Shown here piece by piece: positions 3,353-23,414 of a stretch of 64,000 nt of DNA. The stretch comes from Bacillota bacterium (GTDB lineage: Bacteria > Bacillota > Clostridia > Peptostreptococcales > Anaerovoracaceae). The position numbers and the translations under genes are program-made. Position 1 is the stretch's first letter. Every line of letters starts with the position of its first letter. The stretch is from assembly GCA_017397825.1 (NCBI GenBank), contig JAFQHT010000145.1, positions 1,024-65,023 of the forward strand, read 5' to 3'. Under the pieces are notes generated by a model, which saw only the letters and a program-made list of their open reading frames with translations, did no database searches and had not been told where the DNA came from.

Positions 3353-5101
3353 TTATGTAATAAGCTTACTACCTCGCAATGTGTCAACCCTTGTATCTCG
3401 CGGCACAATTGTTGGTTCGCTATTATTATTTGACGGCATTTTGTCATGAGATTTTTTTCTTCCTTTCTGGATTCTGTTCTTTGAATTATTCCAAGTATCT
3501 TCAAAACCAGTCTTATATACAAAGACTAATCGATAAGGATCTATTTTTCCATCTTCATTATACCCTCCGACAAGTACTTTTTCAATTACACTTTCGAAAA
3601 TCTCCCTGTCGAATTCCATTGTTTCTTGATAATTCATCAGTTTCTTTTTGAATTCATTAATTCTGCTTCGTATGGGTGCTTTATTATCCTCCAAACTCTG
3701 TAACTCTTCAATCGCCAATTCATACTTTTGTAATTTCAAAGCCATTTTTTTATCAGCTTGCTTATACAGCTCTGCTTCCACATTTCCTTCCAAATACTGA
3801 TTAAGAAGAGTATTCCGTCTTAGTCGGAGATTATCATACTTCTTCGTAACCTCTTCCAGTTTGCTTCTATCATCATTGGCTGTCAGTACCTTCTCAACCT
3901 GTTTAAGAAAAGTGTCAAGCAGTTCTGGATTATCCTTGCAAATCAGTTTATATGATTCCACAAAGGCTTCTTCTATCAACTCTTCCGGAATAGATTTCGA
4001 ATAGACACAATTCTTTTTACCAGTTTTACTTGCCTGAACACATTGCCAGATATGTTTTTTATATTTAGATGCGCTGTGCCACTCTCTTCTTGACATGGAG
4101 CTCCCACAAAAGCTGCATTTCAGCATTGAACTGAATGCATATTTTCGACTCCATTTATCGCGTTTTCCTGGTTCAACCATATTTCGGCTTCCATTCCTAT
4201 GGTTTAATATTGCCTGAGCTTTTTCAAACATCTCCCGGGAAATTATAGGTTCATGATGGTCACGGACATAGTACTGATCCTGCTCCCCGCAATTCATCAG
4301 CCGTCTTTTTGTAATCGGGTCAACTGTGTAAGTTTTCCCCATCAGTACATCTCCTATATACTTTTCGTTACGGATAATCCCAATTACGGTATCATTATTC
4401 CATTTATTCCCTCTGATTGTCTTAATCCCCTGTTCATTAAGTTCCCTGGAAATGATAGTCCCACCTGCGCCACTCACATATCTGTCAAAAATATACTGCA
4501 CAACATGTGCCTCATTTTTATTCACGGTGATAGCTTTTGTAACAGGGTCATAATCATAACCCAGGCATCTTCCGAATCCCACGATTTCTCCACGCTTCAT
4601 CTTCATCTGAAGACCCTTTTTCACATAAGAAGAAGTGTTTACAACTTCCTGCTGTGCAACAGAACTTAGTATGGTAAGCAGAAACTCACCATCCGTCAGC
4701 GTATTAATGCGTTCTACTTCAAAATACACTGCTACATTCTTTGCCTGAAGCATACGCACATACTTGATTGTGTCCAATGTGTTTCTGGCAAAACGAGGGA
4801 TGCTTTTAGCTATAACCATGTCAATTTTCCCATCGAGACATTGGCGAATCATTTTTTGGAATTCTTCACGGGTATCTTTCGTACCGGTTATTGCCTTATC
4901 TGCAAAAACCCCTGCAAAAATCCATTCTTTATTGTTCTTAATTAAGTCGGTGTAATGCTGGACCATCGAATTATAGCTTTTTATTTGGTCTTCATCATCG
5001 GTACTTACTCGGCAGTATGCTGCAACACGTAATCGTTTTATTTTATGGAGACTTCCACTTCGAGCCGCGACATCCGTAGCTTTTATTACTTCTACTTCCA
5101 T
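3353..5101 (-). CDS. Large serine recombinase (ICE integrase)
   Basis: N-terminal resolvase catalytic domain (RVAAYCRVSTDDEDQ). Recombinase domain. Zinc-ribbon Cys cluster (CSFCGSSM...WQCV...KKNC). C-terminal coiled coil. Start chosen at MEVEVIK, preceded by an AGGAGAAAGGAAG RBS. Confidence 0.9.
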   Translation of the reverse strand: MEVEVIKATDVAARSGSLHKIKRLRVAAYCRVSTDDEDQIKSYNSMVQHYTDLIKNNKEWIFAGVFADKAITGTKDTREEFQKMIRQCLDGKIDMVIAKSIPRFARNTLDTIKYVRMLQAKNVAVYFEVERINTLTDGEFLLTILSSVAQQEVVNTSSYVKKGLQMKMKRGEIVGFGRCLGYDYDPVTKAITVNKNEAHVVQYIFDRYVSGAGGTIISRELNEQGIKTIRGNKWNNDTVIGIIRNEKYIGDVLMGKTYTVDPITKRRLMNCGEQDQYYVRDHHEPIISREMFEKAQAILNHRNGSRNMVEPGKRDKWSRKYAFSSMLKCSFCGSSMSRREWHSASKYKKHIWQCVQASKTGKKNCVYSKSIPEELIEEAFVESYKLICKDNPELLDTFLKQVEKVLTANDDRSKLEEVTKKYDNLRLRRNTLLNQYLEGNVEAELYKQADKKMALKLQKYELAIEELQSLEDNKAPIRSRINEFKKKLMNYQETMEFDREIFESVIEKVLVGGYNEDGKIDPYRLVFVYKTGFEDTWNNSKNRIQKGRKKSHDKMPSNNNSEPTIVPRDTRVDTLRGSKLIT

Positions 5102-5153
5102 GATTGCTTCCTTTCTCCTGCAGTCTCCAGTAATCCAGTACCTGTCCAAAGAT

Positions 5154-5829: not shown

Positions 5830-6243
5830 TTAAAAGATTTTTTTGCGGATCTGTTTCAATGTGGCCGAAATCCTCTGCTGGCTCACATTTTCAGCCTGAG
5901 CAATCTCGTTGATGCTCATTCCATGCAGACGCATGGCCAGACGTCTTTGCTGTGTCTCCGTCAATTCATGTATCTTTTCACCGATTTCATGTTCAATTTC
6001 CTTTTCCAAAAGAAGCCCTTCCGGAGTATCCTTGTCAAAGTATTCTTCACCCTCATATGTGATTGCATTGAGGGAATAATTATGTCTGCGTTCTTTTCTG
6101 TTTGAATTTGCTTCTCTTCTGCGGTCTTCAATGATAAATGCTGCTATTCTGTCTTCATCCGCAAACTCCAAATTTACAGATTTTCTGTCCACAAAAATAT
6201 ACCTTATTTTAATTGTCACGTCCGCATATGCCCTGCACCACAC
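5830..6243 (-). CDS. Sigma-70 region-4-like HTH protein typical of Firmicutes ICEs
   Basis: C-terminal LTETQQRRLAMRLHGMSINEIAQAENVSQQRISATLKQIRKKIF. A GTG at 6219 (VTIKIRY...) is an alternative start. Confidence 0.65.
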   Translation of the reverse strand: MWCRAYADVTIKIRYIFVDRKSVNLEFADEDRIAAFIIEDRRREANSNRKERRHNYSLNAITYEGEEYFDKDTPEGLLLEKEIEHEIGEKIHELTETQQRRLAMRLHGMSINEIAQAENVSQQRISATLKQIRKKIF

Positions 6244-6448: not shown

Positions 6449-7753
6449 CTATTTCACCTTAATCTTCTTCACACTGCTGTAGCTTCCATAAACTTTCGTA
6501 TCATTCACTACCTTATAGGCACGTACCTTCACATAGTAGGTCTTACCCTTCTTCAGCTCCTTGATGGTCTTGGAGCGGGACTTGGAAGAGGAATCCTTTA
6601 CGGATACGGTCTTTGTGTTCTTGGTGAAGTCCTTGTCTGTGGCAATCTTAATCTGGAAGCCATCTGCCATCTGCTGGTTGGTCCAGGACACCTTTAAGGA
6701 ACCGGACTTCGGAGAAGTAGCCTTAACACCTGCAGTCTTTGCAGGGATGTTTTCAAAATACTGTGCCAGGGCATAGTAGGCCTGCTCGGTTGCCATCAGG
6801 TTTACCACTGGTTCATAGCCGCCGCTTGCATGATTTACATGGCGGAAACCGCCTGCATCAGCACCGTCATTGTCGTAATAAGTCATCATGGCATCCAGTA
6901 CGGTTTTACCATTTTTCTTAAAACGCTTGTCAGTATTAGCATTGATACCCAGGTTGGAAAGTGCACTTACCACCTGTGCACTGCTTTCCAGCGTCGGAAC
7001 ACCCCAGCTGCTGAAGCCACCGTCTGCATCCTGCATCTTGGACAGGCAGTTGATAGCCTTGTCGATGGCTGCCTTTACCTTCTTCTGTCCGGAGTATGGT
7101 GCCAGGGATTCCAGACCCATGGCAGTCAGGTCAGGGTCAGATACGCTGCCGCTCAGTGCCCATCCGCCATCCGGCAGCTGATTTTCAATCATATAGTTAA
7201 TCAGCTTCTGACGGGTTGTGAAGTTCTCAATACCGGCTGCTTTCTGCTCTGCTGCAGTCATCTTTGGAATGTCATAATCACCTGCATCCAGGGCACGGAG
7301 TGCGAAAATCGGACCGTTGATGCCCTGCCATACTACCTTATCAAAGTCCGCCAGCATGGCCACCATATCATAGCCGTTAATATCGGTTGGATCAAGGCCC
7401 AGTGCTGCGTAGGCAATAATCACACGGGAGTATTCGGTGTACTTTCTGTCATGGAGAATGCCTTTCACGCCGCGGTAACCATCTTCCAGTGCTGCTTCCA
7501 CAGTCTTCTGATAGCTCTTCACATAGGAGTCCGGGAAGTCGTAGCCCGCTTCTGCCAGACCGTACATGAGCCATTCGCCTCCGATGGAACCAAAGGCAGG
7601 TTCTTTGATAAGATTGTAAAGATAGTCGCCGGTCTTTTCCCAGGCAGCCTTTACATCGCTGTAGGATGCTGCAGAAGCACTTCCCGCACTGCCCAGGCAC
7701 ATAGTCAGCACCAGAGCCAGAATCAGAAGCAGTGATACTAATTTTCTTTTCAT
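6449..7753 (-). CDS. Secreted prenyltransferase/terpene-cyclase-like alpha/alpha-toroid repeat protein with a C-terminal FN3-like domain
   Basis: Signal peptide (MKRKLVSLLLILALVLTMCLGSAGSASA). Repeated toroid motifs (QLPDGGWALS, MQDADGGFSSWG, GGFRH). C-terminal FN3-like module (GKTYYVKVRAYKV). Confidence 0.65.
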   Translation of the reverse strand: MKRKLVSLLLILALVLTMCLGSAGSASAASYSDVKAAWEKTGDYLYNLIKEPAFGSIGGEWLMYGLAEAGYDFPDSYVKSYQKTVEAALEDGYRGVKGILHDRKYTEYSRVIIAYAALGLDPTDINGYDMVAMLADFDKVVWQGINGPIFALRALDAGDYDIPKMTAAEQKAAGIENFTTRQKLINYMIENQLPDGGWALSGSVSDPDLTAMGLESLAPYSGQKKVKAAIDKAINCLSKMQDADGGFSSWGVPTLESSAQVVSALSNLGINANTDKRFKKNGKTVLDAMMTYYDNDGADAGGFRHVNHASGGYEPVVNLMATEQAYYALAQYFENIPAKTAGVKATSPKSGSLKVSWTNQQMADGFQIKIATDKDFTKNTKTVSVKDSSSKSRSKTIKELKKGKTYYVKVRAYKVVNDTKVYGSYSSVKKIKVK

Positions 7754-7780
7754 TCTTTTTTCCTCGCTTTCATTCGCCTT

Positions 7781-8665
7781 TTATGCCATGGAGTTATCGC
7801 CTACGTCCTTGCCCAGGTCGCAGGTATAAACCCACTCAATTACATCGCCGTCACGGAGATAATATGACGAGCATCCGTAGTTCGGGAACCAGCCGTTAAC
7901 CTTGTACATCCATCCGGACAGCGGACCGCCGTCAAACTCGTACAGGTAGTTGATTCCTTCAATATAGTTGGATTCATACACCGGAGTGAAACTGAATTCC
8001 ATGTGTACCCCATTGTTTCTGCAAACGGTGTTGAGTACATCGAACACGGTGTTATCCGTGGTTCCCTGATATACCACATCCTTCAAAATCCATCCGTCTT
8101 CCGGTATGTAATCGCGGATGGACTCGGTTTCCAGCTTGCTCATGTCACTGGAAAGGGTCTCGCAGCTGATGCTGATGGTCACAGTCACCGGCTCCGGTAC
8201 ATCTGGCTTGTAGGCACGGTTGCCGTCATTGGACGCGGTCGGGTCTTTGCTGTTGTCAACCTTCAGTTCTTCTGCTGTCATGTCCTTTGCTTCTTCTTTG
8301 GTCGGACGGTCATCTGCAGGTTTCTGTTCAGGCTCATCAGCCTGGTCTTCTTCAGCGGACTGGTTATCAGAAACATCTTCCTGTTTAACATCAGTCTGCG
8401 TTTCATCATCCTGCTGCAGTTCATCAGACTCAGACTGCTGGATATTATCACCGGTCTGCTGTTCTTCCTGAACCTGCTGCTCCTGCTGGTAATCTACGAT
8501 GTTGCCCTGTCCATCGGGAAGCAGTGCATCTTTGCCTTCAATGCTGAAAATAGAGGCGGTGTAGATGACTGCCGCAATGGCAATCACGCCAAGCACAATG
8601 CGGCGGATACGCTTCTTTCTCAGGTTCTTCGCCAGTTCTTTTTGAAAATCGTGTTTTTCTTCCAT
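7781..8665 (-). CDS. Membrane-anchored DUF4430 (transcobalamin-like C-terminal domain) protein
   Basis: N-terminal TM anchor (IVLGVIAIAAVIYTASIF). About 80 aa of acidic Q/E/D-rich linker. C-terminal domain ending in GPLSGWMYKVNGWFPNYGCSSYYLRDGDVIEWVYT, recognised as DUF4430-like. Confidence 0.7.
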   Translation of the reverse strand: MEEKHDFQKELAKNLRKKRIRRIVLGVIAIAAVIYTASIFSIEGKDALLPDGQGNIVDYQQEQQVQEEQQTGDNIQQSESDELQQDDETQTDVKQEDVSDNQSAEEDQADEPEQKPADDRPTKEEAKDMTAEELKVDNSKDPTASNDGNRAYKPDVPEPVTVTISISCETLSSDMSKLETESIRDYIPEDGWILKDVVYQGTTDNTVFDVLNTVCRNNGVHMEFSFTPVYESNYIEGINYLYEFDGGPLSGWMYKVNGWFPNYGCSSYYLRDGDVIEWVYTCDLGKDVGDNSMA

Positions 8666-8674
8666 AGATACCCC

Positions 8675-9625
8675 CTATTTATATATCCCATATTTAATCT
8701 TAATTCGTTCAATCTTGCGTATCATCGGATCACCCATGAGGAAGATGCAGAAAGCTGCCGCAGCCCCGTGAGCAAGGTCATAAGGAAGCCCGGATACATA
8801 CAGCAGCCTAAGAGTGTTCCAGTTTAGGCCACCGCTTTCACCCATTCCCATGGATGTAACGAAACTGCAGATATTCATCAGGCCGCCATAGAGAATTACG
8901 GTAGTGAAGAACGTAAATACAGTGATTGTGATGCTATCTACCGGCATTCTCTTTCGCTGGAGCAATACCCCCGCCATAAGTCCAAATACGCCGCAGGCAT
9001 ACACAAGCCAAGATGCCTCTTTAATCAGGTTCCAGCCGCATACAAGGCATATTACATAAGCTGTAATCTCAAATGCCGCAATGCACAATACCGGCCCCAT
9101 CACCACGGAGAAGTTTCTGGATTTCAGCCGTTCAGTCTTCTGTCCCAGTTCCACCTTATTAAAGGTCAGCCCCGCAAGGAAGCCTAAAAGCCCCCAGCAG
9201 AACATCTGCCAAGGTGTCCACGGCCCCTGTCCCATATAGAAGTTGCAGACAAATCGTGAGAGTGCTCCTACCAGGAAGCCTGCTTCCGGTCCCATGGCGA
9301 TACCTGCCACAATAACCATGGCAGTCCCAATCTGCAGAGGTACCGTCACATGAAGGAACATGTGGGCTGCCACCGTGATGGCGCTCATCATGGCAACCAG
9401 CACGATTTCACGGGCCTTCGGCTTTCTCTTTTCGAAGACCATGAAAAACGGTGCCATGCAGCAGATAACTACACCTACGCTGATAATCATGTAATACTTG
9501 CCGCCGTCAAGGACGGTGGATAAAGCAATGAGAGCCGGAACTGCCACGAAAATCATCATCGCAGCCATGGCGGTACGCTTCCTTACGGCTTTTGCCCTTA
9601 CCGGATCGTATTCTGTTCTGCCCAT
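8675..9625 (-). CDS. Polytopic membrane protein, putative ECF substrate-specific (S) component (atypically large)
   Basis: 316 aa with about 8 hydrophobic helices. It lies directly downstream of the ECF ATPase with a 28-nt overlap. No enzymatic motifs seen. Confidence 0.55.
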   Translation of the reverse strand: MGRTEYDPVRAKAVRKRTAMAAMMIFVAVPALIALSTVLDGGKYYMIISVGVVICCMAPFFMVFEKRKPKAREIVLVAMMSAITVAAHMFLHVTVPLQIGTAMVIVAGIAMGPEAGFLVGALSRFVCNFYMGQGPWTPWQMFCWGLLGFLAGLTFNKVELGQKTERLKSRNFSVVMGPVLCIAAFEITAYVICLVCGWNLIKEASWLVYACGVFGLMAGVLLQRKRMPVDSITITVFTFFTTVILYGGLMNICSFVTSMGMGESGGLNWNTLRLLYVSGLPYDLAHGAAAAFCIFLMGDPMIRKIERIKIKYGIYK

Positions 9626-11334
9626 GCAGCCACCTCCTCCCAGGTCACAAGGTTTTCATTCCACTGACGCACGATGCGGTTTGCAGTGGTAGTATAGAAG
9701 CTGTTTCCCGCAAAGAACGGTCTTGCAGGGCCTGCAGACACCACATCCCCGTCAAAGAACATGGCGCATCGGTCGCCGTACTCTGCACAGAATTCCACGT
9801 CGTGGGATACCATGAACAGGGTCACGCCCTGCTCTTTCAGCTTCTTAAAGATGCCCGCCAGGGTAATTTTAAAGAACGGGTCAAGGCCCTTGGTCGGTTC
9901 ATCAAGTAATAAAATCTTCGGTTCTAAGAGCAGGATTTTGCCAAGGGCCAGTCTCTGCTGCTCACCACCGGATAAGTCATATGGGTGAGACTTGCGAAGA
10001 TGGCTGATTTCCATTGTTTCAAGCATATTCTCTACCCTTGCTGCCACTTCTTCAGGCGGGAGCTTGCGGTCATAGAGTGCTTCTGCCAGTTCTTCTTCTA
10101 CTGTAATTTCGGTAAAGAGAGCCTGCGGGTTCTGCGGTACCATGGCCATCACGTGCCCCATCAGCTTCCCTGTATTTTCCTTGCAGACTTTCAGGCCGTC
10201 TACAGTGATACTGCCCCTCTGCGGTTTAATCAGCCCCGCCACGGCTTTTAAGGTGGTGGACTTACCGGCACCGTTACCGCCCATGAGGCAGAACAACTCG
10301 CCTGGCTTCACTTTCAGGTTCAAACCACGGAGTACTTGTGGACTGGTTCGGTCATACTGATGCCACAGGTCTTTGATTTCAATAATTGCATCCCCCGGCA
10401 AAATCTCCTCTTCCGGCATTCTCACAGGGTCCAGAGATGCGGATTTTGCGGAGTCTTCCAGAACTGCTTCCAGCCAGAGCCGGCCGTCACGGATGGTCAG
10501 AGGTGCTATACGCTTGCCATCGCTGGTGCGATGAAGGCCCTTTTGCATTTTACTGCCGCCGCAGGCTGAAAAAATCTTCATAACAGACGGAAGACCATAG
10601 AACATAGGGTGGCGTTCCCCCGCGGAGTTTCCTGCCAGGAAGTCACCGATTTTCCACGGGCTGTCACCAGCTATAATGCGGCCCTGATCCATAACCACCA
10701 CCCGGTCTGCCATTGGAATCAGGTCTTCCAGGCGGTGCTCGGAAATGATGACGGTGGTGCCAAGGTCACGGTTGATTTTGTAGACGGTTTTCAGGAACTC
10801 CTCTGCAGCAATCGGATCAAGCTGAGAAGTCGGTTCGTCCAGGATAAGGACTTTCGGCTGCATGACCATAACGGATGCCAGGTTCAGAAGCTGTTTCTGA
10901 CCGCCGGAAAGTTCGGACACGCTCTTGCGGAACCAGGTCTGCATATCGAAGAAGCTTGCCATTTCGGCTACTTTGCGGCGGATAGTCTGGTTGTCCATGC
11001 CCAGGCTTTCAAGACCAAAGGCCAGTTCATGCCATACTTTATCGGTGACAAGCTGGTTGTCCGGGTTCTGCTGTACGAAGCCGATGTCGGTGGTACTGAG
11101 TCTGTCAGGAAGTTCTGCGATTTCCACGCCGCCGTACAGAACGCTGCCTTCCTTATCACCATAAGGAATCAGGTTCTTTTTCAGCTGGCGAAGGAGCGTA
11201 CTCTTGCCGCAGCCGGATTTGCCGCAGATGACGATAAATTCGGACTGCTCTACATCAAGGTTTACATCACGGAGTGCGGGACTTTCTGCCAGCGGATATG
11301 TAAAGGTTAAATTTCGGATTGCAATGCTTGCCAT
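9598..11334 (-). CDS. ECF transporter fused double ATPase (EcfA-EcfA')
   Basis: Two Walker A motifs (GKSGCGKST, GGNGAGKST) and two ABC signatures (LSGGQKQ, LSGGEQQ). Start taken at MASIAIRNLTF. Confidence 0.9.
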   Translation of the reverse strand: MASIAIRNLTFTYPLAESPALRDVNLDVEQSEFIVICGKSGCGKSTLLRQLKKNLIPYGDKEGSVLYGGVEIAELPDRLSTTDIGFVQQNPDNQLVTDKVWHELAFGLESLGMDNQTIRRKVAEMASFFDMQTWFRKSVSELSGGQKQLLNLASVMVMQPKVLILDEPTSQLDPIAAEEFLKTVYKINRDLGTTVIISEHRLEDLIPMADRVVVMDQGRIIAGDSPWKIGDFLAGNSAGERHPMFYGLPSVMKIFSACGGSKMQKGLHRTSDGKRIAPLTIRDGRLWLEAVLEDSAKSASLDPVRMPEEEILPGDAIIEIKDLWHQYDRTSPQVLRGLNLKVKPGELFCLMGGNGAGKSTTLKAVAGLIKPQRGSITVDGLKVCKENTGKLMGHVMAMVPQNPQALFTEITVEEELAEALYDRKLPPEEVAARVENMLETMEISHLRKSHPYDLSGGEQQRLALGKILLLEPKILLLDEPTKGLDPFFKITLAGIFKKLKEQGVTLFMVSHDVEFCAEYGDRCAMFFDGDVVSAGPARPFFAGNSFYTTTANRIVRQWNENLVTWEEVAAWAEQNTIR

Positions 11335-12221
11335 TTCTTTTCTCCCAGTATACCAATGACTGCCGGTGTGAACAGCAAAATGCCGTATGCCGCCAGCGTC
11401 AATATTCTCATAAGATTCCATGTGCCCAGCACAATGGTCGGATAGTAGTTAATTGTGGTAAGGCCCATGATGCAGCCAGCCGCAGTCAGAAGTCCCAGGA
11501 TGGTCATGAAGATAAGCAGCTTCTTGTCCCGGTCTGTGAACTTGAACAGGTGGAAGCTGGTTCTTCCTTTCAGGCCGTAGCCTCTTGCTTCCATGGAGTC
11601 GGATGTTTCAATGGATGCTTCCAGTGACCAGGAAATAAGAATAGAAACTTCCTTCACCGTCTGGCGCACCTTTTCCAGGAAACTCTTTTCCGTGTGGCGG
11701 CCCATGCACCGCTGTCCCATGGAGATTTCGGTATACCGGCTCTTTAAAAGAGGGATAAAGCGGAAAATCATGGACAATGTCAGTGCCAGCACCGGCGCTG
11801 CCTTACCGAAGAGGTAGATAAACTTATCGGATGTCATAATCACATTAAAACAGGAAAACCACACAATCACGGAAGAAAGCATTACCGCCCCAGCCAGTCC
11901 GTAAATGAAAGATTCCAGTGTAATGCGGTTTCCGAACAGGTAAAAGAGCACGGTTGCTCCGTTATGTGTAAAGAGTGTATTGATAACGGCCATGAGAATC
12001 ACGACCGGAATTGTCATAAGTAAGTTGAATTTCAGGCCTTTGCTGCCGGACAGAATGTATGACCAGGTCCAGCTCGCGGCCAGTGTCAGTGCCAGGAAAG
12101 CCGGGTCCATGCTGAACATGGTGATTCCGATGGCAAAGACGAAAAATATGAAGTTTACAGCAGGGTGATACCCTGCAAAGGTACTGGTTTCACCCAGTCC
12201 TGTTCTGTTTTTTTCAGTCAT
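11307..12221 (-). CDS. ECF transporter transmembrane T component (EcfT/CbiQ family)
   Basis: Polytopic protein with the conserved ARG-type coupling motif (SMEARGYGLKGRTSF). It sits directly upstream of the ATPase. Confidence 0.8.
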   Translation of the reverse strand: MTEKNRTGLGETSTFAGYHPAVNFIFFVFAIGITMFSMDPAFLALTLAASWTWSYILSGSKGLKFNLLMTIPVVILMAVINTLFTHNGATVLFYLFGNRITLESFIYGLAGAVMLSSVIVWFSCFNVIMTSDKFIYLFGKAAPVLALTLSMIFRFIPLLKSRYTEISMGQRCMGRHTEKSFLEKVRQTVKEVSILISWSLEASIETSDSMEARGYGLKGRTSFHLFKFTDRDKKLLIFMTILGLLTAAGCIMGLTTINYYPTIVLGTWNLMRILTLAAYGILLFTPAVIGILGEKKWQALQSEI

Positions 12222-12343: not shown

Positions 12344-15300
12344 TTACTTGCTCCAGGTTCTGCTTGCATATCTGCACTGCTTCAGAGCAGTTCTTGCAAT
12401 CAGCTTGCCTTCTGCATCGTATACCTGTACGCGTACCTTGTAGTAGTACTTGGTACCCTTCTTACCGCCAGTCTGAGTATAAGTTGTAGTGTCCTTAATC
12501 AGTCTGGAGCTGTACTTGGAAGACTTCTTAGTGGATCTGTAGAAGTTGTACTTCACGGTAAATCCTTCTGCTTCCAGTTCTTCAATGATAGCCTTATCAG
12601 CCTTATCCAGCTGTACGGTTACCTTAATATTCTTCTTGGCAGTCTTGGAAGAACGTGCTACAGGAGTCAGGTCAGCAATCAGAGCCTTCACTTCTTCTGC
12701 AGTCATAGTTTCTTCTTCAACTTCCAGACCGATTTCGTCAGCATCAACCAGTGCAAAGGTGGAGAAGTGAGGAGTATCGAATCTGTAGTGTTTCTTGCCG
12801 CCAACAGTCACTTCCTGACCCTTGAGGTGTTCAATCTTGCCATCGTCTCCGATGTGGATTGCTGCAACCTTCTTACCGTCAAGTTTAGTTGGAATTTCAA
12901 CAGTTACAGTTGCCTTACCTTCGTTGAAGGAAGAAATAGTCTTGTCACCGGACTTGATAACAAGCTGGATAATGTGGCCGTTTTCACCTGCTGCCTGCTT
13001 GTGAACTGCAGTAGGAGCTTTCACTTCCACGATTTCCAGAGTTACGGTGCTTCCTGCAGCTTCAGCTGCTACAGTCTTCAGAACTTCCTGGTCGAGGGAT
13101 ACAGTACCGTTTTCGGTCTTTACAGTCAGAGCTGCAGTAGTATCTTCTACGATATCCTTTACAGTAGCAGTATCCAGCTGAACCTTAACGGTTGCTGCAC
13201 CCTTAGTGTCATCTGCAGATACCTGCAGAACGATTTCGGAAGCCTTGTTTTCAGTTGCCTGCTTGAGAGTTTCGGTTACATTTTCTTTAGTAACAGTTGC
13301 GGTTGCAGTAGAACCAACGATAGTTACTTCGGTTGGAGTAGTGGTAGTGTTGGAAACTGAGCCAGATTCCTTGGAGGTGGTAACTTCAGTCTTTTCTTCT
13401 ACTGCAGGAGGTGCCCAATCTTTACTATCCGGTTCATAAAAATAGTCATCTGTATAGTGGAATATAATTTTGTCACCGTTTTCTAAATACTGCTCAGCAA
13501 CACTAAGTGCAGAATGTTTGCCATTCAGAGTGTACATCCAGCCGGAATTAGGTCCGTTCGTATACTCAGCCAGTTCTTCTTGTGTTCCTGGTTTTGTGAT
13601 GCCCTGTACATAGTTACCCGTTTCATTTCTCCAGGCATATCCTGCATCCCTCAGTGCCATTTCAAAAACATCTCGCACAGTTGCATTGATGCTTACAGGA
13701 TAATTTTTCACATAAATCCATGTCTGCAATCCACCAGTTTCCAAAGTATGGATCTTTTTGTCTGCAGAACTGTCATGAACACTATCTCCAAGCAAAGTAA
13801 ATGATACATTAATAGTTTTCGGATTTTCTGGTGTATCAGCTTTAAGTACTGTCACGGTTATCGTCGTTTCAGCAGTATTGTACTTCAAAGTCACAGTCTG
13901 CAAACCATGCTGATTCTTATTGTATCCATTAATCTGAAGGTCGTTTAAATTCACAGAAGTTCTGCTTCCATCAGACCAATTTGCACTAACAGTTATTCCA
14001 TTTAAATCCAAGTCATCCCCGATGATATACTGAGTCTTATACTCACCGCCAAGGCTTAAGCTGGTCACTATTGGTGTATCACTGATGACTGGATATTTTT
14101 CTCCCTGAATCCAATTCTTATAACTGGATTCAGAATTGTTTAATTCCTGTACAACAGTATTATCCGCTAATTCAGTTTCACTTCTTGGAGAACTGAATTT
14201 GTCTGCACCAACGATCGCACCTGTAACAGCACCTCCAATTCCATCAGCAGTGCCACAATTATCAAGGAAGAAATTTGTTGGATTGCCTTTTGTTTTTGTG
14301 AAATCATTTACGCACCCTATAATTGCACCGACATTTTTTTCGCCATAGAGCTTACCATAGAATAAGTTGTCTGACAGTGCATTGGCACCTTTAATTCCAT
14401 AATCATCGCCGGTGTCATTATAATTGACATGGCCCACTTCTGAACCAATTATGCCTCCTACTTCTTCGACACCTTTAATATCAGCTGCTACATAACAATT
14501 ATGTATTTGAACTACCGGTGTTCCTGAAGCACCTCCAATATATCCAGAACCTGCAATGCCGCCTACTCTCATACCGGATGCTTCTATTGTTCCTAAAAAT
14601 GCACTGTTTTTTACAGTACACGGTCCTATAGACTGTCCTTTTGAACCGAATAAACCACCTACATAATCTACGCCATAAACTGCAGCATAGCTTTTACTGT
14701 TTTCAATGGTTCCATTAAAATCTCCACAGAAAGATCCAATTCGGCTTTGGTCTTTGTTATATCCAATAACAACACCATCTTCAATCAGACAGTTGCGAAT
14801 ATTAATGGCATTAACTCCCGATGCATATCCCCCGGCGAATCCCGATTTTAAAATCTTTGTTCCCGATTTTATGGTTACTTTTTCAATATCAATAGTTCGT
14901 AATTTTACCGTGTCATTTTGATATTCTCCTGTTTCGCCATAGTCAACTACATATTTGTCAAGTAAACCGTATCCATCAATATGATTTCCCTGAATTGTCA
15001 TATTTTTAATCGTTGCATGACGTGCATAGTTCAAGAGTGGTTTCCCGTAATCTGCAATAATTAAAGAATACCCCTTGCCATCGATGGTTCCACTAAAAGG
15101 CTGCAGACTAATGCCACAATCATTCTCTTTTCCTCCAGGTTTCAGATTGCCGATTGGTTTCCACGTTTCTGATAACTCAATATTATTTGCAAATGCCAGA
15201 ACCTGTCCTGAAAAGCTAAATGGCTGCCCAGCTTCTCCTTCAACTAACTTTTTCACGTAATTCAGGTCATCTTCGTTATGAATCAGATACGGATCACTTT

Positions 15301-17062
15301 CTGTTCCTGAGCCTTTCAGTCCAGTAACAACATCCGTAGAATCTTTAAATGTTACCTGTACAGGATTACTTACTATACTGTCTCCTGTAAAACCTTCAGA
15401 CGAGACTTTAATTTCCGCATAATAGAAATACGATCCTATTACATCTTGTGTATCATTTAAAGTAACACTATATTTATTACATTTTTTCTCATCTTTAGTA
15501 GTGTTTCCATCGCTACGGCATTCAGTTGCGATTAGCTCACTTCCTTCAAAACTTGCTGTTTCATTGCGATACATGGAAATTTTATAATCTACACCTTCTA
15601 TAGGGTCGTTATTCGAAGCAGCAAGCAAACCAATTTCAAACGATGGTTTCTCCCCTTTGAACAATATATCCTTACCACTTATCTGGAGAGGTATCAAAAT
15701 TTCAGGAGCAGTAAGTGTGCTTGATCTAACTTCATAGTTTATATCATTGGATGTAGACTCAAAAGATATACCATCAACTGTATAGGTAACAACACAGAAG
15801 TATTTTTCTGTTCCTATATATTTCGTTGAAGGCTGATAGGATGATTCTGTTGCACCATTGATTATTTTTTTATTTGTTCCCAGATATCTGTACCACTGAT
15901 AAGATAATGTTCCTTCGCCATCTGTCGGTTCACTCACAACAGCCGTCAGCATTTTTCCACTGCCTTTTTCAGTAGTCACATCGTCGATTTTTTCTATAAC
16001 AGGAGATAAGTCCTTTTTACATACGAATAAGGTGTATTCAGTCTCTAATTCCCCATTTTTGACTTTGATAGGAATGCAGGCACGATCTGATTCCGGTGTA
16101 GGCTTGTATTTGGTCAGTTCATATTTATTATTTTTAGCGTCATACTTTTCTTCACCTACCCATATTTCTGTTTCCGTACTATCAATCTTAGTTGTTGTTG
16201 ATTCAAGATTTAAATTAATTTCATTCGCAGCAGTAATTGTAGTAAAATTATTATTATATGGGTCAACTACAGAATTAAATGCCGGAGTAACAGTCAAATT
16301 ATCTGTTCCCACGCTCACGCTTAAAGTTTTTAGGGTTAAGCTTCGCGTGATAAGGTAATCATACGAATCATAATTAACAAAGCTACCATCCTTATCCACT
16401 GGCCCAACTTTGACAGTCAATTTCGTTTGTTTTCCAGCAGGGAAGTTCTGAATTCTAAGGATTTGTTTAAACGGATCCGATGTGGTTTTCTTCGTTAATG
16501 CAATCTTGGTATTTTTTTGTTCGACACCATCGATTAGTAAAGAAACATGCAACTTTAAATCTATACAATCATCTGGTATAGTGATATTAATTTTTGAAGT
16601 CATATTTCTTGAGTCAGGAAGTACTAAACTATATTCTTTTGTATTTGCCTGGAAGACACAATCTTCGACAATTCCGCTAGTTACTAGTTGATTAACATTG
16701 AATGTGATATCTTCTACATACCCGTGTATCTCATTACCACTGTTGTCTGCTGGTTCACTCACAGTCTGCGGAGAATCCTGCTGCTGTTCCGAATTAGCAC
16801 CCAGTTCCGTCAGGGCTGCAGCTGCCACAGTGCCGTTATCAACGGTTGCCACAGCGGCATTGCTGCTTAATTTAATCGTTTCCACGGGCACAACATCCGT
16901 ACTCCCGCCATCTTCCACTGATGCCGATACTACAACTTCATCACCACTGCCTGTAATGGTTCCATCCTCAGCAAATGCCATACTGGGCATCATTGTGAAA
17001 ACCATCATGAATACCAGAAGCAGTGAAATCAGTCTTGAACTTTTTTTCATGTTCTTTTTCAT
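12344..17062 (-). CDS. 1572-aa secreted multidomain protein: Ig-like repeats, GLUG-motif region, internal DUF4430 domain, C-terminal FN3-like module
   Basis: Signal peptide (MKKNMKKSSRLISLLLVFMMVFTMMPSMAFA). GLUG-type repeats (VGGLFGS, VGGIAGS, VGGIIGS, VGAIIGC; about nt 14288-14680). DUF4430-like segment at aa ~1083-1207 (nt 13442-13816; NSGWMYTLNGKHSALSVAEQYLENGDKIIFHYT). No LPXTG signal. Confidence 0.8.
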   Translation of the reverse strand: MKKNMKKSSRLISLLLVFMMVFTMMPSMAFAEDGTITGSGDEVVVSASVEDGGSTDVVPVETIKLSSNAAVATVDNGTVAAAALTELGANSEQQQDSPQTVSEPADNSGNEIHGYVEDITFNVNQLVTSGIVEDCVFQANTKEYSLVLPDSRNMTSKINITIPDDCIDLKLHVSLLIDGVEQKNTKIALTKKTTSDPFKQILRIQNFPAGKQTKLTVKVGPVDKDGSFVNYDSYDYLITRSLTLKTLSVSVGTDNLTVTPAFNSVVDPYNNNFTTITAANEINLNLESTTTKIDSTETEIWVGEEKYDAKNNKYELTKYKPTPESDRACIPIKVKNGELETEYTLFVCKKDLSPVIEKIDDVTTEKGSGKMLTAVVSEPTDGEGTLSYQWYRYLGTNKKIINGATESSYQPSTKYIGTEKYFCVVTYTVDGISFESTSNDINYEVRSSTLTAPEILIPLQISGKDILFKGEKPSFEIGLLAASNNDPIEGVDYKISMYRNETASFEGSELIATECRSDGNTTKDEKKCNKYSVTLNDTQDVIGSYFYYAEIKVSSEGFTGDSIVSNPVQVTFKDSTDVVTGLKGSGTESDPYLIHNEDDLNYVKKLVEGEAGQPFSFSGQVLAFANNIELSETWKPIGNLKPGGKENDCGISLQPFSGTIDGKGYSLIIADYGKPLLNYARHATIKNMTIQGNHIDGYGLLDKYVVDYGETGEYQNDTVKLRTIDIEKVTIKSGTKILKSGFAGGYASGVNAINIRNCLIEDGVVIGYNKDQSRIGSFCGDFNGTIENSKSYAAVYGVDYVGGLFGSKGQSIGPCTVKNSAFLGTIEASGMRVGGIAGSGYIGGASGTPVVQIHNCYVAADIKGVEEVGGIIGSEVGHVNYNDTGDDYGIKGANALSDNLFYGKLYGEKNVGAIIGCVNDFTKTKGNPTNFFLDNCGTADGIGGAVTGAIVGADKFSSPRSETELADNTVVQELNNSESSYKNWIQGEKYPVISDTPIVTSLSLGGEYKTQYIIGDDLDLNGITVSANWSDGSRTSVNLNDLQINGYNKNQHGLQTVTLKYNTAETTITVTVLKADTPENPKTINVSFTLLGDSVHDSSADKKIHTLETGGLQTWIYVKNYPVSINATVRDVFEMALRDAGYAWRNETGNYVQGITKPGTQEELAEYTNGPNSGWMYTLNGKHSALSVAEQYLENGDKIIFHYTDDYFYEPDSKDWAPPAVEEKTEVTTSKESGSVSNTTTTPTEVTIVGSTATATVTKENVTETLKQATENKASEIVLQVSADDTKGAATVKVQLDTATVKDIVEDTTAALTVKTENGTVSLDQEVLKTVAAEAAGSTVTLEIVEVKAPTAVHKQAAGENGHIIQLVIKSGDKTISSFNEGKATVTVEIPTKLDGKKVAAIHIGDDGKIEHLKGQEVTVGGKKHYRFDTPHFSTFALVDADEIGLEVEEETMTAEEVKALIADLTPVARSSKTAKKNIKVTVQLDKADKAIIEELEAEGFTVKYNFYRSTKKSSKYSSRLIKDTTTYTQTGGKKGTKYYYKVRVQVYDAEGKLIARTALKQCRYASRTWSK

Positions 17063-17161: not shown

Positions 17162-17491
17162 TTACCTAGTGGTCTGAAGGAGACATTCTGTTGCAATACG
17201 CTCTTCTCTGCACTTTTTACGGTTTTCCGCAGAACGTTTCCGCATCTCTGTGTGCTTCTTCCTATATTTTTCTTTTCTGTGCAGATGCTTCTCTGATACC
17301 GGCTTCAACCCGGCCTGTTCCAGAATTCTCGGCCACGGTCCGAATCTCTGTTTGAAATAGAACGCACATGCAACATCATCCTTTATAGGCAGCCGGCCAA
17401 GTTCTGCTGCCTTCTGGCGTAGTATATCCAGAAGTGCTTCATCACTCATCAGGGTATATTCCGCTGTGATGCGTTTTTCTTCCTGTGTCAT
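17162..17491 (-). CDS. Small protein with one homing-endonuclease-associated (HEARO-like) repeat and a basic tail
   Basis: DEALLDILRQKAAELGRLPIKDD...FKQRFGPWPRILEQAGLKP followed by a K/R-rich tail. The start overlaps the upstream stop (TAATG). Confidence 0.5.
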   Translation of the reverse strand: MTQEEKRITAEYTLMSDEALLDILRQKAAELGRLPIKDDVACAFYFKQRFGPWPRILEQAGLKPVSEKHLHRKEKYRKKHTEMRKRSAENRKKCREERIATECLLQTTR

Positions 17492-17817
17492 TATTTACCC
17501 TCCTCCGCTTGTTTACGTGTTTCTGCAGATTTATCTCTTGCAGCCTGCAGTTTCCGTCTGCTGGCAGCCTTTCTTCTCTGATGGGTCTTGGAGGCCGGCT
17601 TCAGCCCTGCCTTCTCAAGCATTCTCGTCCATGGGCCGAACCGCTCTTTTAGATACCACGTCAGCTCCATCTCGGATTTTAATGGGCGGCGCCCCAGCTC
17701 TACAGCCTTTTGCTGCACCACTGCCAGAAGTTCCTCATCGCTCATCTGCTTATATTTACTTAATAAAAATTCTTCTTCCTCTGTTAAATGAAGTTTGAAA
17801 TCGTCGAAATCTTTCAT
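17491..17817 (-). CDS. Paralog of 17162..17491 (HEARO-like repeat and basic tail)
   Basis: DEELLAVVQQKAVELGRRPLKSE...LKERFGPWTRMLEKAGLKP. Start taken at MKDFDDFKL (17817). Confidence 0.5.
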   Translation of the reverse strand: MKDFDDFKLHLTEEEEFLLSKYKQMSDEELLAVVQQKAVELGRRPLKSEMELTWYLKERFGPWTRMLEKAGLKPASKTHQRRKAASRRKLQAARDKSAETRKQAEEGK

Positions 17818-17985
17818 GTTCAAGTTACTTCCTGTTTCTATGTATTGAGAGAGCGGAGCAGCACCTTCGAGGGTTTTCTCTGCTCCGCAGAATGAAAAGA
17901 CTATTTTTATAAAACAAAAAGGCTGTAACAAAACTACCAGATCTACTGGTAATTTCATTACAGCCCGGGTTTCCTGTAATAGGTA

Positions 17986-18220
17986 CAAAAACAACAAAAA
18001 ACACCTGTATCATTCCCCGTGATACTGTGCCTTCGCTTTTCCACTTTCATGCATGTTTTCTGACTTGTGCGTCATCGCGTTCTCCGTCTTCTCAAAATAC
18101 TACAGGTTCCTGCTCATATTTCAATGACATAATGGAGAAAACTCTTCACCTACAGCGGCGGGTGCCGTACCGGACTTCGACCGGATTCCATCTTAGCCCC
18201 AGGCTTCCGTCGCCCAGGGA
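17986..18220 (-). promoter_or_regulatory. Probable cobalamin riboswitch (short form lacking the peripheral extension) with terminator
   Basis: Minus-strand core TAAGATGGAATCCGGTCGAAGTCCGGTACGGCACCCGCCGCTGTAGG. Then ATTATGTCATTG and a degenerate B12 box, GAGCAGGAACCTGT. Hairpin at 18002-18029 followed by TTTTTTGTTGTTTTT. Confidence 0.55.
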
Positions 18221-18280
18221 ACATAAAAGCTCTATTTAATTGTATATTTTGCTTTCCATTACGATTTCACAGCCTGTCAG

Positions 18281-18712: not shown

Positions 18713-19261
18713 TTATTTCTTGTCATTATGAAAAGCCAACATGCCGAACAGGTAAAGATGCTCCGACGACCATGCCAGTTCCAGACCGCAGCGTTCCGCC
18801 AGCTTAGCCACATCGATACAGTAGGCAGACATACAGCTGATTCTCTGGTCCGGATGACGGCAAGGAAGATTTTGACGGCGCAGGCAAGGCTCGCACAGCG
18901 GACAGCCGTTGTAACCGGAACAGAATCCATAATATCCCTGTTTCTCCATTTCGGCCTTCAACCGGAGCACCATCTGATTATGAGCTTTTTTAGCCTTCTG
19001 CACGGTTTCCTTGTCTTCATATCCTGCAATATCCCAAATTGTCTGAACGATCAGAACCCGTTCTTCTGCCAGAATGTTCTGCCGAAGAGCTTCGACCGGG
19101 CCGCAGTCTGGCGGGCAGGAATAATTGGCATTGTAATTGCCGCAGAGGTTCTGCTCACAGTAAACACGAAATTTCGCGTCCACCGGAACGTCTTCCGGCT
19201 TTATCAAAGCCGCACGGAAGCCATGTGCCTCCGCCATGAGAAGGAGTTCTTTTTCAGTCAT
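18713..19261 (-). CDS. DUF2284-type predicted metal-binding (Cys-rich) protein
   Basis: Cys clusters (YCEQNLCGNY..YSCPPDCG; CPLCEPCLRR..PCRHP). Family name recalled from memory. Confidence 0.6.
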   Translation of the reverse strand: MTEKELLLMAEAHGFRAALIKPEDVPVDAKFRVYCEQNLCGNYNANYSCPPDCGPVEALRQNILAEERVLIVQTIWDIAGYEDKETVQKAKKAHNQMVLRLKAEMEKQGYYGFCSGYNGCPLCEPCLRRQNLPCRHPDQRISCMSAYCIDVAKLAERCGLELAWSSEHLYLFGMLAFHNDKK

Positions 19262-22680: not shown

Positions 22681-22980
22681 CTATTCTTCTTCCGGCATAG
22701 GCCAGTACAGGCAGTAGGCCGGGTACATTTCACCGATGTACACCCACACCGTTTCCCCCATATCGATGTGTTTCTTAAAGGTAAGATCCGGGATAAATAT
22801 CTTCAGTGCGGACCGCTTCTTTCCGATGAGAACCACCCCTTCTGCTGTCGGATTCTGTCGGAATTCCTCGATTTTTTCTCTCAGCCCTGCGATTCCGGTT
22901 TCCTTTCCGAAATTATCCGCAAAATCATCAATCGGCACGTATGCCACATTGTCCGGGTTTTCAAACCATTCTACTCTCAT
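22681..22980 (-). CDS. Hypothetical 99-aa acidic cytoplasmic protein (target of the riboswitch)
   Basis: MRVEWFENPDNVAYVPIDDFADNFGKE... with a GGAGG RBS. It is bracketed by the riboswitch leader and its own terminator. No family recognised. Confidence 0.6.
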   Translation of the reverse strand: MRVEWFENPDNVAYVPIDDFADNFGKETGIAGLREKIEEFRQNPTAEGVVLIGKKRSALKIFIPDLTFKKHIDMGETVWVYIGEMYPAYCLYWPMPEEE

Positions 22981-23086
22981 AGTGATACCTCCATGTATTG
23001 AAATTTTTTGTTTGGGTCTTGCAGGAGATGGGGCGAAGCTGCACACGGCACCCACGCCCCAAAATGAATGAAAAGAACAATTGCAA

Positions 23087-23393
23087 TATAAAAAGCCTGA
23101 TAGCCACTTGGGTCATCAGGTCCTGCAATCCTTTCCTGTTTCAATAAAAAAGCTGCGGCCCTGCCACAGCTGATAATCATTGATAGAAGAAAATCCTCAC
23201 CCTAATTACCCGTAGTGTGCTTCGATAGTTATGGACTCATGCAGGTCTCCTGGCTCGGACGTCTTCGCACCTTCCGTCTTCCCAGTCTTTCGACCAGTGA
23301 CATAAATGAAAGGCACTCTTTCCTTACAGTGGCGGGACCGCACAGGACTTTAACCTGTTTCCCTATTAACCGGCGTGCAGCCGGACATGAATC
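23087..23393 (-). promoter_or_regulatory. Cobalamin riboswitch (aptamer ~23233-23393) with two tandem terminator hairpins in the expression platform
   Basis: Minus strand: GGTTAATAGGGAAACAGGTTAAAGTCCTGTGCGGTCCCGCCACTGTAAGG ... GTCACTGG...CTGGGAAGACGG ... B12 box GAGCCAGGAGACCTGC. Terminators at 23146-23170 (GCTGTGGC/GCCGCAGC then TTTTTT) and 23087-23121. Confidence 0.85.
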
Positions 23394-23414
23394 GGATATT
23401 CAGTTTATATGGGG

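Follow-up and report, generated by a model that had tools for sequence, protein, structure and literature searches.

A candidate two-gene transcobalamin-like corrinoid binder in a riboswitch-headed ECF transporter operon of an Anaerovoracaceae bacterium

A stretch of 64,000 nucleotides from a Clostridia-type gut bacterium (Bacillota) of the family Anaerovoracaceae (assembly GCA_017397825.1, contig JAFQHT010000145.1, positions 1,024 to 65,023; hereafter the window, meaning the whole of this stretch) carries two adjacent genes, A and B, which probably encode the separate halves of a transcobalamin-like corrinoid binder serving a vitamin B12-repressed energy-coupling factor (ECF) importer. An initial annotation, made from the sequence alone, had proposed that the alpha/alpha toroid and the DUF4430 beta domain of a cobalamin carrier are encoded here side by side. 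Both open reading frames (ORFs) lie on the minus strand exactly where it had placed them, and its interpretation was upheld by every computational test applied, the binding and assembly parts of it remaining predictions. The two genes and their parts are the following.

7753..6449, minus strand: gene A, 434 residues, with a signal peptide, an alpha/alpha toroid and an FN3 tail
7670..7753, minus strand: signal peptide of gene A, residues 1–28, with a hydrophobic N-terminus and a putative cleavage site between ASA and AS
6740..7666, minus strand: single alpha/alpha toroid of gene A, residues 30–338, from AlphaFold and Foldseek; proposed counterpart of the transcobalamin alpha domain
6452..6730, minus strand: FN3 domain of gene A, residues 342–434, from Pfam and the model; possibly for anchoring or interaction
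8665..7781, minus strand: gene B, 294 residues, with a transmembrane anchor, an acidic linker and DUF4430
8537..8605, minus strand: transmembrane anchor of gene B, about residues 21–43, following KKRIRR, from Kyte-Doolittle hydrophobicity
8171..8533, minus strand: acidic Q/E/D-rich linker of gene B, residues 45–165, from composition
7784..8170, minus strand: DUF4430, transcobalamin-beta-like (SLBB) domain of gene B, residues 166–294, from Pfam

A and B close a co-directional cluster, an operon of nine genes with tiny or overlapping junctions, in which 9 nucleotides separate the gene for the ECF S component from B and 27 nucleotides separate B from A. The operon runs, in order, from a cobalamin riboswitch and a terminator through two small HNH_repeat ORFs, a giant surface protein, the T component EcfT, the fused double ATPase EcfA-EcfA' (EcfAA') and the S component to B and A, and the ORF and domain matches of A, B and the S component are far beyond chance. 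Its regulatory and transport parts are listed below.

18033..18241, minus strand: cobalamin riboswitch aptamer at the operon head (Rfam RF00174, 92.9 bits, E 8.8e-22, model positions 1–189)
17921..17965, minus strand: intrinsic-terminator-like hairpin with a 20-bp stem, followed by the T-run TTTTTGTTTT
11307..12221, minus strand: EcfT, a CbiQ-like T component (PF02361, E 2.6e-5, 24.4 bits, slightly below the cut-off of 25)
9598..11421, minus strand: fused double ECF ATPase EcfA-EcfA' (two ABC_tran domains, E 6.4e-63)
8675..9625, minus strand: CbrT-like ECF S component, 316 residues (PF07155, E 9.4e-19)

The riboswitch at the operon head, for which the Rfam gathering score is 31.5, was found again independently by nhmmer. 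As read from the sequence, the hairpin sits between the aptamer and the first ORF, and it is likely to be the expression platform of the riboswitch, acting as an OFF switch.

EcfT also matches TIGR02454 (E 4e-4) and keeps its position in related operons, and the fused ATPase matches the ECF ATPase models TIGR04520 and TIGR04521 at E 4e-112 and 4e-100, respectively. An S component encoded next door to the pair had been part of the original proposal, and it is indeed encoded directly upstream of B. Its sole significant match in the PDB is 6fnp_A, a 182-residue membrane chain of ECF-CbrT (E 1.2e-7), the next match, 4hzu_S, reaching only E 0.13; the alignment to 6fnp_A consists of two blocks flanking an insertion. 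From the length of this chain and the published description of the complex (PMC5997447), we infer that 6fnp_A is CbrT. The 6FNP structure is that of ECF-CbrT, an experimentally proven importer of cobalamin and cobinamide that is not inhibited by hemin (PMC5997447). The insertion in the S component amounts to ~74–90 residues when it is compared with the 6FNP membrane chain and with the S component of L. curvatus.

Gene B has the layout foreseen in the initial annotation, namely a single transmembrane segment, an acidic linker and a DUF4430 domain, except that the linker is 121 residues long and not ~80. The hydrophobicity profile contains one segment only, at about residues 22–42, with a 19-residue Kyte-Doolittle peak of 2.36 at residues 23–24, and the linker holds 19 D, 16 E and 17 Q, giving a net charge of −25. 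Pfam DUF4430 (PF14478) covers residues 205–281 (E 8e-18), and this family takes in the C-terminal domain of vertebrate transcobalamins (PMC4350170; PMC1796856). A transmembrane-like segment, a long, mostly acidic linker and DUF4430 are conserved in 64 of 67 B orthologues, the linkers of which have median lengths of 99–123 residues and median charges of −11 to −13. Four cysteines in the DUF4430 domain of B are invariant or almost so (positions 9, 56, 106 and 123 of a 135-residue domain alignment) and could form disulfides or act as a cobalt ligand. Y83, E84, D86, S91-G92-W93 and Y104 of B are likewise conserved.

For gene A, the proposal of a secreted toroid with characteristic repeats and an FN3 tail agrees with the motifs, with Pfam fn3 and with the AlphaFold model. 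The N-terminus is hydrophobic (MKRKLVSLLLILALVLTMCLGSAGSASA, followed by AS), with a Kyte-Doolittle peak of 2.56 at residue 5, and in the model it forms a helix at residues 2–20, after which the predicted local distance difference test score (pLDDT) is low at residues 20–27. The repeats read QLPDGGW at 192, QDADGGF at 241 and GGFRH at 301–305, and W61, R110, N146, D208 and H305 are invariant. In the AlphaFold (AF2) model (pLDDT 93.1; predicted template modelling score, pTM, 0.88), 13 helices at residues 31–335 build one toroid, followed by a C-terminal beta sandwich with many FN3 matches in Foldseek (TMt 0.65–0.81), where Pfam fn3 covers residues 342–416 (E 1.3e-6). Because the Pfam SQHop_cyclase_C score of 25.2 bits is slightly below its cut-off of 26.1, the assignment of the toroid rests on the AlphaFold model and Foldseek. 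The C-terminal tails of A and of the giant surface protein have no significant similarity to each other (best E 0.013), and we therefore claim no shared anchoring module.

The pairing of A with B recurs well beyond the window. In a collection holding one genome per species, at least 579 stretches matched the A family, and 80 of these loci were fetched, to which all counts of related loci refer. The A-family genomes listed are nearly all Clostridia-type Firmicutes, including Anaerovoracaceae, Oscillospiraceae, Emergencia, Intestinimonas, Sporobacter and Vallitalea. The adjacent split pair noticed in the window is found again in 66 of the 80 loci, where A directly adjoins a small DUF4430 gene of the same orientation; B comes before A, as in the window, in 30 loci, and the order is A, B, EcfT, EcfAA'-S in 36. 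Another five loci are truncated at the end of a contig. In 40 loci, ECF T or S genes are visible, and a giant DUF4430 protein is present in 33. In most relatives with A before B, the double ATPase and the S component form a single ORF.

Toroid and DUF4430 also occur fused in one ORF, in either order, in 10 of the 80 loci. The protein database holds three fusions in the order of transcobalamin (P0255, P0253 and P0266) and ~20 in the reverse order, and such natural fusions constitute Rosetta-stone evidence that the two domains function jointly. A mixed toroid/DUF4430 alignment was built without FN3-bearing sequences. Among protein clusters at 50% identity, 1,971 representatives match the toroid by itself at E<=1e-30, many of them within giant multi-domain surface proteins. 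Giant surface proteins of 1,000–3,500 residues contain the toroid two to three times each (P0361–P0508, and proteins in loci L012, L067, L069 and L078–L080), and some of them also carry DUF4430, dockerin or cadherin-like domains; the repetition suggests large multivalent capture structures.

Cobalamin riboswitches accompany these loci. Each of the seven related loci searched with Rfam contained such riboswitches, and an nhmmer model built from these copies located 63 across 46 of the 80 loci, without exception on the strand of the operon. Of the 63, 31 lie directly ahead of the A/B genes, 19 before B, 11 before A and one before a fused gene. Taken together with the CbrT-like S component, the riboswitches make a corrinoid the most likely substrate.

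The closest view of the proposed architecture comes from the single-chain relative P0255, a 469-residue lipoprotein in which the toroid (residues 6–323) precedes DUF4430 (residues 315–468), as in transcobalamin, and whose gene neighbours encode a giant surface protein and transporter components. Over 329 residues, its toroid half shares 37% identity with A (E 4e-72), and its beta half is ~50% identical to the domain of B (E 4e-42). Foldseek searches with its AlphaFold model (pLDDT 89.5, pTM 0.66) returned transcobalamin, haptocorrin or intrinsic factor as all 15 best PDB matches (E 8.5e-11 to 1.4e-8), in alignments of 449–479 columns that span both domains in order, the next fold class starting only at E 5.5e-5. 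Identity to the cobalamin carriers in these structural alignments is 13–16%, and the beta half superimposes on the isolated human transcobalamin beta domain 5no0 with a TMt of 0.72 and a root-mean-square deviation of 3.0 Å. The resemblance to transcobalamin anticipated in the initial annotation is supported by the model of this single-chain relative.

A number of observations weigh against a transcobalamin-like pair. When the A model is searched alone, Foldseek places the class II terpene cyclase 7xr7 at the top (E 7e-6), gives GH105, prenylcyclase and squalene-hopene cyclase structures as further good matches and does not reach transcobalamin 2v3n until rank 50 (E 4e-4), so that A by itself is a generic alpha/alpha toroid and not specifically transcobalamin-like; of the structural expectation for A, the toroid fold was predicted, but the model is nearer to terpene cyclases than to transcobalamin. 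Pfam Cobalamin_bind (PF01122) does not match A even at E<=10. Likewise, phmmer and profile searches against all PDB chains led from A to squalene-hopene cyclase or FN3 and from B to nothing, with no transcobalamin, intrinsic factor or haptocorrin for either protein. The P0255 model is not a closed sandwich (pTM 0.66; root-mean-square deviation of ~24 Å to holo-transcobalamin), and since its domains are not in the ligand-bound arrangement, it supports the architecture and leaves the geometry of the interface unsupported. We found no binding or complex data for bacterial family members in the literature. Moreover, isolated S components such as CbrT bind cobalamin at nanomolar affinity without helpers (PMC5997447), so extracellular binders are not obviously required. 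Two further points concern L. sakei and L. curvatus and are taken up with heme below.

A first alternative is that A is a secreted terpene-cyclase, prenyltransferase or (alpha/alpha)6 glycoside-hydrolase-type enzyme whose link to B12 is incidental. In sequence and Foldseek searches it scores best against squalene-hopene cyclase and drimenyl-diphosphate synthase, NCBI labels its homologues 'terpene cyclase/mutase family protein', and it contains QW-like repeats; however, it lacks a DxDD motif, consists of one toroid instead of the two-domain beta-gamma cyclase body, scores far under the family cut-offs of hidden Markov models (for example, 32 bits against 322.7 for TIGR01787), is extracellular, and is constantly partnered with DUF4430 and cobalamin riboswitches. 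An enzymatic A is accordingly very improbable, and we reject the terpene-cyclase version of it on the missing DxDD motif, the single toroid and the extracellular location.

A second alternative is that only the DUF4430 domains of B and the giant protein bind corrinoid, with A unpaired and in another surface role, such as a scaffold, a cell-wall or glycan binder, or a receptor for a different ligand in the toroid cavity. The isolated human transcobalamin beta domain was solved as the apo structure 5no0 and has been reported in several ligand states (bioRxiv 10.1101/864751), the giant protein has a DUF4430 domain without a toroid, the toroid of A resembles GH105/GH88 hydrolases and cyclases as much as transcobalamin, and the P0255 model is open. 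Against this, the two genes are neighbours in 66 of 80 loci and have fused repeatedly and independently in both orders, which is hard to account for unless they function jointly, P0255 matches full-length transcobalamin, intrinsic factor and haptocorrin over both domains, and in 19 loci a riboswitch directly precedes the B–A pair alone. We consider binding by DUF4430 without A to be unlikely.

The most direct precedent for a transcobalamin-like pair is also the source of the third alternative, that heme or another non-corrin tetrapyrrole is imported and the A–B pair scavenges heme. In Lactobacillus sakei, whose lsa1836–1840 is the only homologous operon to have been studied experimentally, Verplaetse et al. 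(2019) described such a split pair together with ECF genes, Lsa1839 being the beta-like and Lsa1840 the alpha-like protein; they assigned the system to heme and modelled the pair as an extracellular heterodimer feeding the S component (bioRxiv 10.1101/864751). The Lsa1836–1840 system has the same five parts as the window: an S component, a fused EcfAA', a T component and separate beta-like and alpha-like proteins. Deletion of lsa1836–1840 was reported to change heme uptake, and heme was docked into the modelled alpha/beta heterodimer (bioRxiv 10.1101/864751). The operon of L. curvatus (L082) is homologous to that of the window gene for gene, with 28.6% identity for A, 52% for the core of B, and 28% for the S component (E 6e-31, with a 74-residue gap), yet we found no cobalamin riboswitch in its locus.

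These two systems nevertheless differ in several respects. The L. sakei type runs A, B, T, AA', S and the window T, AA', S, B, A; the former has an LPXTG anchor on its toroid protein and the latter an FN3 tail; a riboswitch heads the window operon and none was found in the L. curvatus locus; and the window has in addition a giant DUF4430 protein and two HNH_repeat ORFs. Whereas the published claim for L. sakei is heme, the evidence in the window points to corrinoids: cobalamin riboswitches head this operon and occur in 46 of the 80 related loci, always on the same strand, the only significant PDB match of the S component is the membrane chain of ECF-CbrT, transport by which is not inhibited by hemin (PMC5997447), and the fold family is that of corrinoid carriers. 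A heme-scavenging pair in the window therefore seems improbable to us, and somewhat more so than corrinoid binding by DUF4430 alone.

The idea of a bacterial transcobalamin-like protein is older still. Burroughs, Balaji, Iyer and Aravind (2007) delineated a bacterial transcobalamin-like SLBB clade with toroid fusions in either order, a second paralogous SLBB protein and linkage to CbiO/CbiQ, and predicted that it scavenges B12 (PMC1796856). The window shares with this clade a surface DUF4430 and a toroid, CbiO- and CbiQ-like genes and a second paralogous SLBB protein. Their emphasis was on fused toroid-SLBB proteins, whereas in the window the two domains are made as separate polypeptides that each carry an export signal; the 2007 description covers neither a CbrT-like S component nor regulation by a riboswitch.

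Compared with vertebrate transcobalamin, intrinsic factor and haptocorrin, the window has the same combination of an alpha/alpha toroid and a DUF4430-type beta domain. The vertebrate carriers are one chain, alpha then beta, with a short linker, and the window has two genes, B then A; the single-chain alpha-beta order is found in the relatives P0255, P0253 and P0266. In the window, moreover, a membrane tether holds one of the halves, an ECF importer takes the place of the endocytic receptor as partner, and A gives no Pfam Cobalamin_bind signal. On the transport side, ECF-CbrT of Lactobacillus delbrueckii is the closest solved relative of the S component. As a group II S component, CbrT draws on a shared housekeeping ECF module and works without an extracellular binder, while the window operon encodes its own dedicated T component and EcfAA', a larger S component and extracellular binders. 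A functional analogue exists in the gut bacterium Bacteroides, where BtuG, a surface lipoprotein that binds corrinoids with high affinity and is encoded in a riboswitch-controlled B12 locus, feeds a membrane transporter. BtuG differs from A and B in its beta-propeller fold, its outer-membrane BtuB context and its single chain.

The novelty implied by the initial annotation does not survive these comparisons, as the same idea had been published (PMC1796856; bioRxiv 10.1101/864751); the split-pair concept is already in the literature, predicted independently from other genomes. To this the present locus adds increments only, namely the clear riboswitch control, the CbrT-like S component and a single-chain relative for which Foldseek returns transcobalamin first, as well as the order of B before A, the transmembrane-tethered beta half, the FN3-tailed alpha half and the apparent location in a conjugative element.

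The remaining genes of the operon are these.

12344..17062, minus strand: giant secreted surface protein, 1572 residues, with a second DUF4430 (residues 1151–1204) and Big_3
17491..17817, minus strand: small HNH_repeat protein 1, ~108 residues from the ATG at 17817 (PF18780, E 2.6e-15)
17162..17491, minus strand: small HNH_repeat protein 2, 109 residues, a paralogue of protein 1 (PF18780, E 6e-14)

In the giant protein, Pfam matches DUF4430 at E 1.5e-7 and Big_3 at E 3.3e-13, and its DUF4430 is paralogous to the domain of B (40% identity, E 1e-9 in BLASTP). PF18780 is a 'homing endonuclease associated repeat', and the two tandem ORFs that carry it are the first genes past the riboswitch; both lack an export signal and end in a basic C-terminal tail. 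Of the 80 related loci, 11 contain homologues, which in four cases directly follow a riboswitch.

An integrative conjugative element seems to span window positions ~3353–47500 and to carry the B12 operon as cargo. The genes in this span include a large serine recombinase (5149..3353), a resolvase, a CHAP hydrolase, a VirB4-like ATPase, an AbiEii toxin, a type IV coupling protein, a MobA/VirD2 relaxase, two DUF5688 genes, a 2126-residue TED/SpaA/TQ adhesin, RadC and ParB; from ~53 kb onwards, V-type ATPase genes seem to belong to the chromosome. In Bacteroides, B12 transporters that are mobile have been described (PMC8759732). A second cobalamin riboswitch (23405..23223, minus strand), stronger than that of the operon at 118 bits and followed by a terminator (23171..23151), stands ahead of an orphan ORF of 124 residues (23055..22681, minus strand) that has no Pfam or NCBIfam match and is itself followed by a resolvase gene. 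Immediately upstream of the operon riboswitch lies a Cys-rich DUF2284 'predicted metal-binding protein' (18713–19261, minus strand, E 1.3e-38). A pemK RNA motif (RF02913; 5494–5580, minus strand, 42.8 bits) is found between a sigma-70-region-4-like ORF (6243..5830) and the serine recombinase.

For the transcobalamin-like pair, we propose the following mechanism. At low intracellular cobalamin, the riboswitch would permit transcription to read through the operon, so that the giant DUF4430 protein, EcfT, EcfAA', the CbrT-like S component, B and A would be expressed. Anchored by one transmembrane helix, B would hold out its DUF4430 beta-grasp domain on the cell exterior at the end of a flexible, acidic tether of ~120 residues. 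A, with its alpha/alpha toroid and FN3 tail, would be secreted. Together they would form a heterodimer around a corrinoid, gripped by the toroid face of A on one side and by the beta domain of B on the other, in the manner of transcobalamin, intrinsic factor and haptocorrin. As B is tethered beside the transporter, the ligand would then be passed to the S component for ATP-driven import, and the giant DUF4430 protein may provide an outer capture layer.

A more far-reaching version joins four elements, a ligand-gated A–B clamp, a three-tier relay that includes the giant protein and leads to the CbrT-like ECF importer, carriage as conjugative cargo, and ancestry of the animal transcobalamins; that all of these hold together is possible but rather doubtful. 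On the A side, the toroid may be held at the cell wall by its FN3 tail, with the pair closing only around a corrinoid. On the B side, the beta half may work as a fishing line on its ~120-residue acidic tether beside the transporter, and the conjugative element may spread B12 piracy among gut Clostridia. A natural counterpart of such a clamp is offered by intrinsic factor, the cleaved fragments of which reportedly reassemble on cobalamin.

Competition for corrinoids shapes gut communities, and we know of no experimental demonstration so far of extracellular B12 capture by Gram-positive anaerobes. The toroid/DUF4430 family is very large, and the present locus, with its unambiguous riboswitch, compact two-gene pair and dedicated transporter, is a good test case for it. 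Biochemical proof would define a major class of B12 scavengers in Firmicutes, would settle the question of heme or B12 raised by the work on L. sakei, and would make the bacterial origin proposed for animal transcobalamin accessible to experiment. If the combined clamp and relay were true, these proteins would represent the bacterial stock from which the animal transcobalamins arose.

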